A stretch of 64,000 nt of DNA from Gammaproteobacteria bacterium (GTDB taxonomy: Bacteria; Pseudomonadota; Gammaproteobacteria; JAJRRL01): the NCBI GenBank assembly GCA_024279495.1, contig JAJRRL010000044.1:257-64256 (forward strand). The letters are read 5' to 3'. Shown piece by piece: positions 18,001-60,000 of the stretch (positions are counted from its first letter, which is position 1; the number at the start of each line of letters is the position of its first letter). A program made the position numbers.

Positions 18001-21000
18001 TCGTAAACGGTGCTTGTCAGCATATCCATAGCCTCTGGCCCCGAAGCAGCGTGATCCACTGTACAATTCAACTGCTTCAAGACAGTCATCACTGCTTCTG
18101 CTGCTGCTTTGTTATCTTCAGTTACCAACACGTGGGCTACTGGACTGGTATCGCTCATGATGCGTATCCTTTTTTATTTATCACCACCCCTATTTAAAGG
18201 GCAACAAGACATAGTCTCAAATTTGACTCCGCCATTCTACTGCATTTTGCTAAAAAAGGTACTGCCTTTTACAAAACTAGCCCTCCGAGCACGTGTTTGA
18301 CCACAAAATACTCTAGAGGTAGCTCTCAACCTGAAGGAATTCCAACATCACAAGAAATACCGACAAACTCACCCCTAAACCACAAGCTGTGGTAAATTCA
18401 ATTTCTTCAACGACTAATATGGAGTTAGTTTGTCGTGTCCTTCACTAGCAACCGCTCAGGGTATACCAATTGGCAACATAGCCAAGAAGCACAAGAGCTG
18501 ACTCAGTTCATTGAGGAGTCTTGCTTATTCCACTGTCTTATCAGTAGCGATGACCTGCTTGCTCGGGCTTTAATTACTGATTGGTCGAGAGAAAATCATC
18601 TCAACAGCCCAGTGGCATGCATCGATGCTTCTTCGTACTTGCTTCTGCGTGAAAAACGCTTAACCCCTCTTCAACGACAAAAAACTCACAAACTCCCTGC
18701 TGTTGTTGTGATCTTTGATTCTCACAGACTAGCCACTCATCATATTGCCGAAATCATTCGAGAACACACAGAAGAACACAGAATCAGGCTGCTACTCTGC
18801 GGCAACGAAGGCTTACGAAACGCTGCTATTGAACTTGGACATTCTAGCGAACGAATGACCCTACTCACTCGTCATGACATCAAGCTTACCTATCGTATCT
18901 TGCAACAGCTGCTTGGCGAACACAGAGAGAAATACCCAGACCTACCCTCTGAACCTTCACCATCTCTACTTGCTGATATTCATGAGTTCGCCGAAGGGCA
19001 AGTATCTCGAATGGAAACAGGGTTCACGCGCTGGTTGCAGACACAAAAACACCCTCTTTTGTCTCGCTTTTCTTTGTCGAAAGCAAGCAACGAACACTCT
19101 TTCTGGCACTCTCGCCGTCTAGCAACTCAAGGTGTTTCTCTGGCGCTCATCGCAGGTTTAAGCCTTGGTGGCTGGAAACACATGCAGCACGTTGATTCCT
19201 TAATTGAACCCGATGTTCATCAGGTCAGCGTGAAGCAGGGCACACAACACAATCCGTATACAGTCACGCTCGCAACAAGCTATTCAAAAAAACAGCTGGT
19301 ACGTTATCAACAGCAACATCACTTACCCACTAAAAATGTCAGCATACGACACGTTGCTGGCAAGAAATACCGCTACGAACTGGATTTAGGCAACTACGCC
19401 AATCGCAAAGATGCTTCAGTAGCGAGTCGAACGTACAGGTACTCGTCATCGCAGGGTCATCACTCTCTTTAGTTAAACTTTAACGATAGCAATAATTTGC
19501 AGGGTTACACTCACGGTAGGGTTAAAACTGAATCTTGAAAGATCACTAGTTGTTACAAGTAACAACGGATCAAGCAAATGCTTAGAGCTGTTTAACACCT
19601 CCTTTAAAAACCAAGGCCAAAAAAAACCGGCCAAAGCCGGTTTTTCTAAAAACAAATACTCTTTTACTTGCTTGTATTATCTGTATGCAATAGTGACTCG
19701 CCCATATGAATCGTATGAGGACGATTCACACTAGGATCAAAGTACTCGTCTCCGTTATCATCTTCATCCATGTGCGTTGAACGATCACAAATATCTTCTG
19801 GTTGCAACATCACGTTTTCAGCCAATGAGTTTGCATCGTCTGGATAAAAAGACACATCTAGAGGAATAGATGGCACAATGCTCCAACGTGTTGGGCAGAT
19901 TTGTGTGGTGTGGCCATTGACTGTTACCTCAACCAATACACCAAAAACACCTAACCAGTTATTACAACATACTTTATCAGTATTGGTTACTTTGTATGTT
20001 TCAGCAGCGCTGAAATCTGTATTAATAGAGCCCGTCATGAACTCTCCACCCGCCAAGGTAAACTCTTGAGAGCGATCTGAATCAACAAGCTGATCATTTA
20101 GCGAAATAGCATGACCCGTATGGTTATGTAGCTTCAAAACCAAAGGAGGGTTGCCACCCCATGCTGCAGAAGCGCTCAATGCGATACCGGATAGTAGTGC
20201 AAGCGTCAGTTTTTTGTAATTATTCATAAGTACTCCTTAATCGTAAACAAATTTACATTCAAAGTCCGAAAAAAGACGTACACAGAAGGTATGCCTTCTC
20301 ACAATTCGGCTTGAAAAACAGCCTCAGGATACCCCCCCCAAATGCTTACTACAAGATAGGGGTTTTCTTAATTATCTTAGATAGATCAGGAAGATATGGG
20401 TTCTGAGATTTCAACTGATGTCACATCTTCTAATCCAGCAACAAGAGGACCTGACTGCGACATAACATTACCTAACAGATCACGCTTAACATCAGCATTA
20501 AAAATACCACCAGCATTAAGACAAGTATCGGCAGAAAAATGCAAACGAGCTGCCACGGAAGAACCAGTCAAGCTAACACTTAAATTTACGGCATAGTTAC
20601 TGAAATCTGGCCTAAAAGTACATATATCAACGTGCCTATCTCCCATGCTCAGGCGCACTGCTTGTCGTGCACGGCGAAGACCAGGCTGATCACAGCAAGT
20701 AATATGTAAGTTAGTCAACTGAAAAGTGGCTGCTGGATCTGCTACCCCAGGGTAATCACCAGAACGATAAATAGAGTATGTTTGAGTCTCTAGCAATGTG
20801 CCGGCCCCTTCAGGCTCTTGAACATAGTAGCTATTACCAAGATCATAGCTACGATCTGAAACATCAACGTCTGTACACCCAAACAAGCAAAAAGACGCTT
20901 GGGCTGTGGATACTAAAACAGCGGTACCTAATAAGGTGAGGGCAGCTATATGCGCGATTTTACCCATGGATGTCTCCTTGTTTACTTTTATAAGAAAAGA

Positions 21001-57000: not shown

Positions 57001-60000
57001 ACTTGTTTCCGCAGCTCATTCCTAAACTTAAAAAAATAGCGCCCAAAATGCCGCTTATAATCAATGAAAATTTCACAGCCAACTTGCGAATCAAGCTTCA
57101 GCGCGGTGAATTGGATGCCATTTTTGTGGCTCTTCCTTTTAAAGAAACGGGCGTTGTTACCAAAGCTTTGTATGAAGAACCGTTTGTGGCCTTACTTCCA
57201 AAAAGTAATCCACTCGCAAAACAAACTTCCATTCACAGAAAAGATTTATCAAAAGAAACGGTCTTACTTTTGGGTGAGGGCCATTGCTTTCGCGATCAGA
57301 TTTTAAAAACCTGCCCGAATTGCTACAAACCAGATGAGCTGCAACAAACCATAGAAGGCACATCGCTAGAAACATTACGCCATATGGTTGCCTCCGGCAT
57401 GGGGATCACTATTTTGCCTAGCACAGCCACGCAAGTAAAACATTACTCAGCGACCCTCTGCACCAAACCATTCGACAAGAACGGACCACAACGAACCGTC
57501 GCACTTGCCTGGCGCGCGTCTTTTCCACGAACAAAAGCAATTGATGCGTTAATTGCTGCACTCAATCAGTTACACTTGCCGGATGTGGTGGTGAAATAAA
57601 ACTAACGGGTGGGAAGCATACGATGCTTAAGTTGACGCCTATGTTTTCACAACGGGGCCCAGGGTAATGCATAACTTTGCTAGCCCCAGCGTTGTCATAC
57701 CGGCGAAAGCCGATACCCAGGGTAATGCACGGTTACGTTTTTCAAAGCAGCCTGCAGATTTGAGCTCACAATAATGTTGGAGCTGGATTTTAAAGATCGC
57801 TAGTTCTTACTTCGTAACAAGGGATCAAGCCTAGGTCCCCGACGTCATTACATTCCTGGGGATGACACCGTTTTTCAACGGTGCAGGCAAGTGGTTGAGG
57901 CTATCTAACTTTCTAGCGCCTGCTAAAGCTGAAACGAAATCATTAAGATGAGTCCCGGCCATGCACTTCGTTTGTCGGGATGACAACATTTTTTAACGGA
58001 TAAAGCCTGGACCCCCTACGTCGCCTTGTTGCCTTCGGGTGACACATAAAGGGTCTCGTTATTCTGGGCGTGGCAACAAGAAGAAAAACTTGCACGATAA
58101 ACTTAACTTATGGTGATGATAACCCAAAACGATGAGACTCTAATTCCTGTGTGACGTACTATAAAAACTCAACTCACACAGGAGAGACTCTCATGAAAAA
58201 AATACTCGCTTCTACTTTATTGGTTTTAAGCGCCACCTCTGCTCTTGCTAGCGGTGATTCAGCTTTATCGATTGGTAGCTACTACGGTAGCATCAACAAC
58301 AATACCGGTTATGTATTGGAATGTTCACAAATGGTTGGCGGTTATTGCGCTAATAATCCTATGCCTGCTAATGGTTATATTCAAATGCTACCCGATCCAG
58401 GCGCAACACAAATTCGAGGTCACATCATGGCTTTTGATAAAGATGTTCCAGGTGCTTACACCGACAACTTGCTATTCACTTATTCTGAACAAGACGATGG
58501 TACTTGGGCCTTTGACATTCAAAGCTTGGATAAAACCATTTCCATCGATCAGATTAGCGCTGATACAGTTGTATTAAATAAGGCGGGTGGTTAATTTTGA
58601 AAGATGCTTGGTTCGCGCTTCGCGCGAACAGCATCAAGACTGGGCCCCCGATGTCACTACGTTGCCTTGGGGTGACACGTCTGGAGGCACTACATTCCTA
58701 GAGTGACACAAAAAAAACCGTTTCGACCAGAGGTAAAAATAATGAAAAATGAAAATGATATTATTGTCGGACAACCTGTCAATGATGCCCTTCAAGAAGC
58801 TGTGTTGCTTCACCAAGCAGAACAACTAGAGAAGCTCCCTGTCGATCAGCAGCAACGTTACATAAACACAAACATGCTAATCACTTTTAAAAATGCGCTT
58901 AGCAAAACAAACAATAAAAAAGAATTTGATCAAAAACGAATGGAAGCTTTTTTATATGCCTTAGCGTCAAAAGCTAATTGGACAATGGGAGAAAACCAGA
59001 AAACTAGGCCTAGCGATACTTTATCGCTTGAACATCAAGAATTACTTGCTTGGATGCATGCGGTGACCTTTAACGGCCTAAGCAAATACATAGAGCCTTT
59101 TTTAAGAAATCTAAATATAGCTAAGCATCGCCATCCCAAACGAGCAAAACCAGGTGTCTGCTGCATAGTCTCCGGCATCATCGGCTCTTTTTTACTGATA
59201 GGGGCGGCAGTAGCAGGGACTTATGGAGCTGTTCTTGCAGTAATCAATACCCTAAAGGGCGGAGGATCGAGTCCTGTTTTTGCCGCTGTAATCGTCTCTT
59301 TTATATGCGCCCTCATTCTAGTACTGCCCTATACTGGCTCTATCTCACTACTAACTAATGGTATTCAGGCAATCAAGGCTCGAAAACACTTCAAAGACCC
59401 TGTGCACTACAACGCAGCCCTTACGAATTATAATCTGGGGCGCTTCTTTTCCAAGCATCATGGGATTAATAAAAGTAATTCTGTTTTGGGCAGCATTCAA
59501 TCAAATGCATTTCATGCATAATAAGTGACATGATCTCTAAAAGACTGCCCTTTTTTGTCACCCTGGGTACCGGCTTTTCGCCGGTATGACAACTCAAGCA
59601 GCGAGGGTGCTAGCGTAATTGTGAATACAAGCCTACACCTTAATCAGATACGTCACCGGGTTCATCCACGCAGGCGATGCTGATTCTAAAGACACATTCA
59701 AATGCTTAGGCTTTAAAGCCTTTTCTTTTTTCGAATCATCTAACTTGCTTTCAGATTTTGGTTTAGGGATAGCGATAACATGCTCTTGTGCTTGTGTATG
59801 CCCTTGTGCTTGTACTTGTGCCTGTTCTTGCACCTGTATGTGGCTTTTCTCTTGTCTTCCAAAAGAGGCTTTAACCGCAGAAGGTGATGTCACTTTCACT
59901 TCTTCTTTCTTAACTTTTTTTGGAAGAGGCTGCACCTGATTCACATGCGCTGCCTTTCTTGCCATATCCACAGCACGCATAGACAGTGTTTGTAAGCCCT

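Follow-up and report, generated by a model that had tools for sequence, protein, structure and literature searches.

Which repeats fill the large spacers between genes in an uncultured gammaproteobacterium, and did they reach those spacers by moving? The question is raised by contig JAJRRL010000044.1 (GenBank assembly GCA_024279495.1), of which a stretch of 64,000 nucleotides with 43% G+C, referred to here as the window, was analyzed. The original prediction, made by reading the sequence, described a single dense family of dispersed palindromic repeats similar to repetitive extragenic palindromes (REPs) and miniature transposable elements with inverted repeats (MITEs). This observation is confirmed: the repeats are real, they belong to several families, and the main one, named family A here, was previously undescribed. 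We consider it highly probable that the repeats form a mixed population of nonautonomous elements, consisting of family A as a MITE, REPs tagged with TGTC, a further repeat named family C, and an 88-bp duplication.

Recurrence of the repeats and their position between genes

The sequence modules on which the prediction was based recur in the window well beyond expectation: GTCACCCCCAGGAAC gave 13 matches at two or fewer mismatches against 0.05 expected, CTTGAAAGATCGCTAGTTGTTAC and GTACATGAGCATCGGAAGCG gave four each against 0 expected, and CCGTTTTTCAACGG gave three against 0.44. Self-BLAST of the window delimited repeat blocks at 19469-19575, 23082-23838, 31863-32326, 40873-41311, and 42899-43153, and further blocks at 53195-53532, 57691-58044, 58592-58711, and 59560-59593, and two small hairpins, 10480-10512 and 36333-36405, were confirmed by inspection of the sequence. 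Of the loci named at the outset, the one near 17300 is marginal, with a single 16-nt match to the family A terminal unit carrying two mismatches (17372-17387) and a covariance-model E-value of 0.47. The modules do not make up one family, as had been claimed, but fall into at least three unrelated families.

Based on a working gene map, the repeats total about 3.1 kb out of roughly 8.0 kb of intergenic DNA (39%). They are present in 12 of 47 spacers, including all six that are longer than 370 bp; the statement that they occupy most intergenic spaces was too strong, as the large spacers are explained by repeats and the majority of spacers are not. With respect to gene orientation, repeats were found in 7 of 13 convergent, 5 of 36 tandem, and none of 12 divergent spacers (Fisher P ~0.001, computed with four tandem spacers, the one at 58592-58711 being left out). 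The repeat usually starts no more than about 40 bp from a stop codon.

Architecture of family A

Family A elements are about 220 bp long, with an AT-rich center of about 65 nt flanked by inverted arms, each about 85 nt in length; the prototype, A2, occupies 53208-53428 (221 bp). When all arms were aligned from the outside inward, each showed a terminal unit, TGTCAYCCCCAGGAAC-N4-GTGACGTCGGGGRCC, at its outermost position, followed by a stem-loop with an 8-bp stem and a 3-4-nt loop that is bracketed by mutually pairing GATC sites. The termini carry the motif TGTCAYCCCCAGG, and the boundaries of the elements are sharp, at TGTCA. A profile hidden Markov model (HMM) and a covariance model detected 16 arms at eight loci of the window (E < 1e-4), belonging to full, half, and nested copies, and GATC is enriched 2.5-fold in family A (P = 2e-4).

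The outer 47 nt of A2 form an inverted repeat with 87% complementarity, and inverted repeats of 16-29 nt were found in two other copies, A1 and A3. As single-stranded DNA, A2 folds into a long Y-shaped hairpin of -60.8 kcal/mol (z = -10.7), and the RNA folds of the other two complete copies gave z = -9.8 (A1) and -5.8; the folding proposed as a check on the prediction thus showed very stable hairpins. Within the arm hairpin, 94% of cells are paired, compared with at most 45% when the partners were slid, and both sides of the stem are changed in 6 of 12 pairs. The stem variants are GTGC/GCAC, GCAT/ATGC, GCGC/GCGC, GTTAC/GTAAC, TTTGC/GCAAA, and TCAGC/GCTGA. Because the stem pairing is kept while its sequence varies, the arm hairpin is under structural constraint.

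Complete copies measure 220-255 bp and are overlapped by short spurious open reading frames (ORFs) only. Like MITEs, family A elements are small (below about 600 bp) with no coding capacity for a transposase and are bounded by terminal inverted repeats. Pfam scans of the approximately 50 ORFs of the window identified no transposase, integrase, or REP-associated tyrosine transposase (RAYT). Assignment to the class of dispersed palindromic REP/MITE-like repeats was therefore right, given the 47-nt terminal inverted repeats, the long hairpin fold, the lack of a transposase, the occurrence in both orientations, and the accompanying REP units of the CGTC/TGTC type.

The position within about 40 bp of stop codons, the enrichment in convergent spacers, and the covarying arm hairpin could also be explained if the repeats were selected cis-acting or RNA elements, that is, 3' stabilizers, terminators, insulators, or small RNA (sRNA) genes similar to CbsR. 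There is a precedent for the last of these in the sRNAs (CbsR) that arise from the elements QMITE1 and QMITE2 in Coxiella burnetii (PMC5896051). We regard this explanation as unlikely. Rfam returned no family match for family A at gathering and E-value thresholds, and a spurious match to a plant microRNA precursor exactly covers the long hairpin at 53208-53428. No consensus for a sigma-70 promoter or an intrinsic terminator was found inside the elements, copies lie in both orientations and in truncated or stacked form, and none is present in the orthologous spacers of the relative described below. Invertible-promoter switches were considered separately and set aside, owing to the lack of a promoter consensus, the 3'-end and convergent placement, the many half elements, and the lack of a recombinase.

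Family A copies in the window

The copies and partial copies of family A are as follows.

53208-53428: A2, the prototype, a complete copy of 221 bp with left arm, AT-rich center, and right arm; both arms at E ~1e-21 with the arm covariance model.
23327-23578: A1, a complete copy (23359-23578) and a stacked terminal unit (23327-23358), 84% identical to A2 over 234 bp.
42899-43153: A3, of subfamily A-II, a complete copy (42928-43153) and a degenerate terminal unit (42899-42927), with 187 bp 93% identical to A4.
41016-41311: A4, of subfamily A-II, with a REP-like hairpin (41018-41045) in place of the left terminal unit and a right arm that ends at 41240.
57738-58075, plus strand: a stack of four family A ends in one polarity, from the covariance model and self-BLAST.
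53429-53538, plus strand: a CCGTTTTTCAACGG hairpin and an arm of the A-II type in truncated form (B2), directly adjoining A2 at its right end; covariance model E = 1e-7.
31863-32064, minus strand: A6, a half element with an arm and part of the center (31863-31959), then three stacked 33-bp terminal units.
19469-19576, plus strand: A7, a fragment with the center and the right-arm hairpin, without a terminal unit; covariance model E = 1e-6.
58592-58711, plus strand: A8, a solo right arm and one stacked terminal unit; covariance model E = 2e-20.

Pairwise identity among the copies is 70-93%. There are two subfamilies, and the A-II pair (A3 and A4) is 93% identical and in direct orientation. At the A4 locus, a solo arm end lies beyond the right arm (41254-41311), and covariance-model matches were obtained at 41016-41099, 41157-41239, and 41254-41310. 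The four ends stacked at 57738-58075 are the center and right arm of a further copy, A5, reaching to 57867; an arm of the A-II type at 57868-57985; an arm end standing alone at 57988-58044; and a degenerate unit at 58061-58075. The first part of this stack, 57738-57973, is 85% identical to 53297-53532. A8 takes up the spacer that separates two orphan ORFs, and the upstream one has its stop codon at the edge of the repeat. Compensated variants are seen in A8 in both the hairpin stem (GTTCGCGC/GCGCGAAC) and the clamp (GATG/CATC).

Most family A ends have additional terminal units stacked on their outer side with the same polarity, at 31959/31992/32025/32058, 57867/57985/58044/58075, 41240/41311, 58678/58708, 23327/23359, and 42899/42928. 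The occurrence of copies in both orientations, as composites, and with tandem duplications had been part of the prediction and was borne out, as in the 66-bp unit that Tandem Repeats Finder detected twice at 100% identity at 31935-32064.

Tandem arrangements of this kind could suggest that the repeats never transposed and result only from local segmental duplication, unequal crossing-over, and gene conversion. Consistent with this are the 66-bp units at 100% identity, the 88-bp units at 85%, the family C copies at 135-bp spacing, a composite of about 236 bp shared by the 53.3-kb and 57.7-kb loci, and the lack of detected target-site duplications. We consider it very unlikely, as the eight family A loci are scattered over 40 kb, with copies in either orientation, and lie amid unrelated core genes (parC, parE, hemL/erpA), the DNA flanking them is not duplicated, and the copies end sharply at TGTCA.

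As a side observation, the YoeB/YefM pair and a 245-aa orphan gene (41370-42869) lie between the direct A-II copies 41054-41240 and 42967-43153. These are the most alike of the separate family A copies in the window, and the layout resembles a composite element.

Lineage specificity of family A

Protein similarity and gene order place the host, an uncultured gammaproteobacterium, at a distance from C. burnetii, with which it has local gene order in common. Seven of the ten window proteins that were looked up were found, each as a singleton cluster at 90% identity. The nearest ParC relative, on an ENA metagenome scaffold, is 78% identical, and all others are at most 67% identical, the named ones including metagenome-assembled genomes of Legionellales, Legionellaceae, and Kangiellaceae. 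HemL is 76% identical to that of the nearest relative and 58% identical to that of C. burnetii, and the window shares the gene order hemL-rubredoxin-UPF0093 with both. C. burnetii itself, which the G+C content and the style of the repeats had suggested as the source of the window, was rejected on the basis of these protein comparisons. In the following, L009 denotes the scaffold of the relative, and L010 and L011 denote C. burnetii loci.

L009 is syntenic with the window at 21.9-37.9 kb. No family A was detected in the 19.7 kb of syntenic DNA of the relative, and neither the profile HMM nor the covariance model found family A arms in 77 kb of DNA from the relative and the Coxiella loci. The spacer between ParC and the bPH_2-domain gene measures 517 bp in the window versus 49 bp in the relative. 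Family A is, as far as could be searched, lineage-specific.

Core genes adjoining the repeats are parC, parE, hemL, erpA, and genes for a LysR-family regulator and a major facilitator superfamily (MFS) transporter. The other neighbors are orphan ORFs without a Pfam match (966, 420, 245, 413, 147, 272, and 315 aa), a Fic protein, and YoeB/YefM. The association of the repeats with lineage-specific orphan genes and the toxin-antitoxin cassette YoeB/YefM held where it could be examined, that is, against one syntenic relative.

REP hairpins and their likeness to the family A terminus

Two of the modules originally reported, CCGTTTTTCAACGG and CGGCGAAAGCCGG, correspond to small hairpins. As described by Di Nocera et al. 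(2013, PMC3733652), CGTC-type REPs consist of an unpaired CGTC, TGTC, or CCTC tag and, after it, a stem of 8-9 bp that usually starts with AT, a loop of 4-5 nt, and a CCA tail. The window was scanned for this layout (CGTC/TGTC tag, 8-9-bp stem, 4-5-nt loop, CCA tail), and three REPs of the CGTC-1 type were detected against 0.14 expected. These units and related hairpins are listed below.

10480-10512, minus strand: CGTC-1-type REP, TGTC ACCCCGTT GAAA AACGGGGT CCAGGG; scan core 10486-10509.
59556-59593, minus strand: CGTC-1-type REP inside TGTCA...TGACA, TGTC ATACCGGC GAAAA GCCGGTAC CCAGGGTGACA; scan core 59567-59591 with tail CCAG.
57693-57722, plus strand: degenerate CGTC-1-type REP, TGTC ATACCGGC GAAA GCCGATAC CCAGGG; scan core 57693-57716.
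36333-36405, minus strand: 73-bp mini-element TGTCAC...GTGACA, read from the sequence.
53153-53180, plus strand: REP-like hairpin GCGGCGAAAGCCGGC, from an inverted-repeat search.

The region 57691-57723 is 94% identical over 34 aligned positions to 59560-59593, in inverted orientation. In the mini-element at 36333-36405, a 10480-type REP carries an insert of 44 bp in its loop, and the insert has a hairpin of its own with GATC in the loop. Further degenerate REP units are those at 41018-41045 and 53153-53180, and the latter pairs with 53424-53450 as an outer inverted repeat around A2 (27 nt, 74% complementary). The unpaired TGTC tag of the three small REPs lies at 10509, 57693, and 59591; their stem, loop, and tail correspond to the CGTC layout, although the stem of 10486-10509 starts with AC. 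The same scan in the C. burnetii loci detected the classic unit CGTC ATTCCCGC GCAG GCGGGAAT CCAG. At 17248-17334 of L011, two CGTC-type REPs stand head-to-head about 40 bp apart, similar to the dimers known as REP doublets forming hairpins (REPINs).

Family A arms also start with TGTC, but in them the hairpin begins about 45 nt from the tag instead of directly after it. Read directly, the outer terminus of family A (TGTCAY-CCCCAGG-...-TGAC) is the tag and tail of the small REPs without the hairpin. This match of TGTCAY...CCCAGG to the REPs suggests that one enzyme may serve both family A and the REPs. The likeness of the termini is presented as a lead, not a result.

A possible but doubtful variant of the mobile-element interpretation, rather than an alternative to mobility, is that family A is a REPIN-like dimer of a hairpin unit whose basic unit is the single arm, and not a MITE that descends from an IS with a DDE transposase. 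It would then be mobilized by an enzyme that recognizes hairpins in single-stranded DNA, either one of the Y1/HUH RAYT-like type or that of the CGTC REPs. Solo arms are indeed present at 58592-58711, 31863-31959, 57988-58044, and 41254-41310; the pairing of the hairpin is conserved while its stem sequence varies; target-site duplications were not found; the co-resident CGTC-type REPs have the TGTC tag and CCAGG tail as well; and the ends are stacked in a single polarity. Against these stand the lack of any RAYT or IS200-like gene in the window, arms of about 85 nt that far exceed REPs of 20-40 nt, a hairpin about 45 nt from the terminus, and the fact that the CGTC REPs themselves have no known enzyme (PMC3733652). 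In addition, the best-conserved part of the arm is a sequence block of the kind read in double-stranded form and not the hairpin. The covarying hairpin, the solo arms, and the missing target duplications thus lean toward a REPIN-like element, and the long sequence-conserved terminal unit, the 85-nt arm, and the lack of a RAYT lean away from it.

A still more specific proposal, which we hold to be improbable, is that family A is a long-armed derivative of CGTC/TGTC-tagged REPs. One enzyme would read TGTCAY...CCCAGG together with the GATC-clamped hairpin, possibly under Dam control, and would insert without target duplication, preferentially next to TGTCA ends. Such a preference would explain the stacks in one polarity. 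If the proposal were true, it would offer the first handle on the movement of CGTC-type REPs, which have no known transposase.

Comparison with known elements

Among known elements, QMITE1 of C. burnetii resembles family A in being a hairpin-forming MITE with terminal inverted repeats and dense, dispersed copies at gene 3' ends, and its host, like the present one, is an intracellular-type gammaproteobacterium (Wachter et al. 2018, PMC5896051). In both elements the terminus begins with (C/T)GTCAT and copies overlap spurious short ORFs. They differ in size (about 220 bp for family A versus 300-400 bp for QMITE1) and in the inverted repeat, which is 47 nt in family A, extending as an imperfect arm of about 85 nt, versus 21-28 nt in QMITE1. 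Family A also lacks detectable sequence homology to QMITE1, its integration host factor (IHF) consensus, predicted sigma-70 promoters, DUF1658 peptides, and 2-4-bp direct repeats.

For direct comparison, QMITE1 DNA was taken from C. burnetii via DUF1658 proteins. BLAST, nhmmer, the covariance model, and shuffle-controlled alignment were all negative, the local alignment score of family A with QMITE1 being 19 versus 19.2 ± 2.0 for shuffles, and the candidate identity of family A with QMITE1 or QMITE2 was rejected. The IHF site of QMITE1 (WATCAANNNNTTR) had no match inside family A. DUF1658 gave no match at E <= 10 in ten six-frame fragments, its presence in the Pfam copy used being unconfirmed.

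One fragment of QMITE1 is present in the window, outside family A:

57623-57643, plus strand: exact 18-21-nt core of the QMITE1 terminal repeat, CTTAAGTTGACGCCTATG; BLAST E = 0.008.

The core exactly matches both ends of the QMITE1 copy in L010 and the copy in L011. It lies 24 bp after the stop codon of the LysR-family gene and heads the repeat cluster at 57.6-58.1 kb. QMITE1 was reported to have no counterparts outside C. burnetii, and a fragment of its terminal repeat has now been found outside that species.

This exact core, the local gene order shared with C. burnetii, and the REPs of the same architecture in both genomes are the grounds on which the repeats could be taken as remnants of QMITE1, QMITE2, or a single known insertion sequence (IS). 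Such an origin is extremely unlikely. The alignment to QMITE1 does not rise above shuffled sequences, nhmmer and the covariance model gave no hit in Coxiella loci that do carry QMITE copies, neither the IHF consensus nor DUF1658 was matched, the size and terminal inverted repeats differ, and no plasmid or IS-bearing record matched. The author of the prediction had named derivation from a single known IS as an outcome that would overturn it; in these comparisons family A is part of neither a known IS nor Coxiella QMITE1.

Other classes share some features with the repeats. The CGTC REP superfamily (Rickettsia RPE-4/6, Neisseria dRS3, and C. burnetii units) has the layout seen in the three small window units (PMC3733652), and the outer terminus of family A carries its tag and tail without the hairpin; family A differs from CGTC REPs in its arms of about 85 nt and in a hairpin that is GATC-clamped and about 45 nt from the tag. 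REPINs and RAYT-mobilized GTAG REPs of Pseudomonas and Escherichia coli, as well as QMITE2, are like family A in forming inverted dimers of hairpin units as well as singletons and in being extragenic. No target duplications were seen for the window units in this comparison, and they differ from REPIN/RAYT systems in having a TGTC/CGTC tag instead of GTAG, no RAYT nearby, and a much greater length. A Y1 transposase domain, as in IS200/IS605-like elements, was not found in any window ORF. QMITE2 has 7-11-bp direct repeats and an IS1111 target, and the window contains no IS110-family gene.

Correia elements of Neisseria, enterobacterial ERIC, and pneumococcal RUP are similar to family A in size class, terminal inverted repeats, long-hairpin transcripts, intergenic position, and nested or partial copies. 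Family A shows no similarity to them in sequence and has neither an IHF site nor a target duplication, whether TA or other. The features found only in family A, compared with classical MITEs, are the stackable terminal units and the covarying sub-hairpin within each arm.

Mobility and proposed mechanism

Several results weigh against the interpretation of family A as a mobile element within a mixed repeat population. Searches of GTDB, JGI, IMG/VR, and plasmids, together with a protein search, identified no autonomous partner and no copy outside the contig, and its spread through the genome is accordingly putative. No flush 2-10-bp target-site duplication was found at any complete copy; only offset, chance direct repeats of 3-4 bp were present there, and the age of the copies and the stacked ends weaken this test. 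As the copies are 70-93% identical, there is no sign of current activity. The 66-bp duplication at 100% identity looks like recent slippage rather than transposition. Finally, the relative with the 78% identical ParC has no family A in its two orthologous spacers, and its intergenic DNA is too diverged to provide an exact empty site; because this only comparator is about 70-78% identical, the absence shows lineage specificity and not a clean empty site.

The individual searches gave the following results. For the terminal-repeat pattern of family A, the scans of GTDB representatives and of JGI metagenomes yielded eight matches apiece. All of these came from high-GC taxa or contigs, those in JGI showed no extended similarity, and the pattern was judged absent from both collections. 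IMG/VR gave no match to it. The arm and element sequences had no match in plasmids, a protein search with the 100-aa ORF inside A2 returned only itself, and searching the literature for the motif strings returned unrelated papers only. No cognate autonomous IS with family A terminal repeats was found in the window or in the databases scanned.

With these points taken into account, the mixed population of nonautonomous elements is the explanation we favor, and it could have arisen as follows. An enzyme encoded elsewhere in the genome would recognize the terminal unit and the arm hairpin and spread family A into gene-poor DNA at gene 3' ends, probably once the lineage had separated from the nearest available relative; the same enzyme may also serve the REPs. 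Copies would then decay into half elements and could gain extra terminal units, whether through insertion beside existing TGTCA termini or through slippage and unequal exchange, and they might act as substrates for local duplication and rearrangement. The present effect of the repeats is most likely passive, through long hairpins that would be carried in 3' untranslated regions and through homology for recombination. Family A is ordinary selfish DNA, and the understanding of how such elements work is unchanged by it.

The repeats account for the large spacers in this genome, generate spurious ORF calls such as the 86-aa protein P0136, probably fragment the assembly, and mark sites of lineage-specific gene gain and local rearrangement. 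They also give a further example of a genome, here one with local gene order in common with C. burnetii, in which MITEs and REPs have proliferated. As a compact case in which a MITE terminus and CGTC REPs share a tag and a tail, they might help to find the enzyme of this REP class.

Family C and local duplications

Family C is a repeat of about 100 bp that is unrelated to family A and is centered on ATGTAC-N5-GTACATGAGCA. Its copies and the local duplications of the window are listed below.

23114-23208, minus strand: C1, in the opposite orientation to C2, with 85% identity to 23744-23838 over 95 bp.
23729-23838, plus strand: C2, directly after the erpA stop codon, from self-BLAST and alignment.
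32128-32326, plus strand: C3 and C4 in tandem at 135-bp spacing (32128-32191 and 32211-32326), 95% identical over 64 bp.
40873-41025, plus strand: 88-bp tandem duplication of a terminator-like hairpin unit (units 40873-40937 and 40961-41025, 85% identical).
23082-23302, plus strand: perfect 47-bp direct duplication of the rubredoxin 3' end (23082-23128 = 23256-23302, 100%).

C3/C4 end 17 bp upstream of the start codon of the bPH_2-domain gene, and the two units of the 40873-41025 duplication enclose a solo terminal unit of family A (40943-40958). The consensus fold of family C is weak (-9.3 kcal/mol) with little covariation, and on this basis family C was rejected as a structured RNA. In the relative, the corresponding syntenic position downstream of erpA also holds a related sequence (L009, about 2180-2240), which indicates that family C is older than family A at that site. 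The core that recurs there, 3' of erpA, is GTACATAAAG.GCATGAGCA (L009, 2180-2240), and the window copy at 23645-23838 contains an internal partial duplication of about 80 bp relative to the L009 version.

The erpA region also differs in gene arrangement. The UPF0093 gene lies between rubredoxin and erpA in L009 and immediately after rubredoxin in C. burnetii, whose locus stops within this gene; the window has it beyond erpA and in inverted orientation (22939-24785 versus L009 1460-2632 and L011 19764-20186). The spacer it vacated is a 732-bp repeat cluster that includes the 47-bp rubredoxin duplication. This duplication consists of the last 28 coding bases and 19 bases downstream, and it brackets a 127-bp segment with the inverted C1. 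The relocation of the gene and the duplications in the cluster at 23.1-23.8 kb tie the repeats to rearrangement, on circumstantial evidence. The 47-bp duplication is far longer than any usual target-site duplication.

Other features of the window

A segment of about 4.2 kb (32871-37071) is absent from the relative. It contains a 966-aa orphan ORF with a 129-bp tandem repeat, possibly with a frameshifted upstream piece at 33184-33441, and a DUF4160/DUF2442 pair, and the REP mini-element at 36333-36405 lies between this ORF and the pair.

In-frame tandem repeats with periods of 21-129 bp were found at 12422-12575, 35314-35571, 38243-38329, 38810-38958, 40321-40403, and 47250-47323. Most of the ORFs that carry them are orphans without a Pfam domain (678, 966, 434, and 420 aa), and the repeat at 47250-47323 lies in an outer-membrane efflux gene with an OEP domain. 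The window also contains, at 931-4729, a cluster of GNAT acetyltransferase and aminoglycoside/APH-type phosphotransferase genes, including a fused GNAT-APH ORF of 501 aa.

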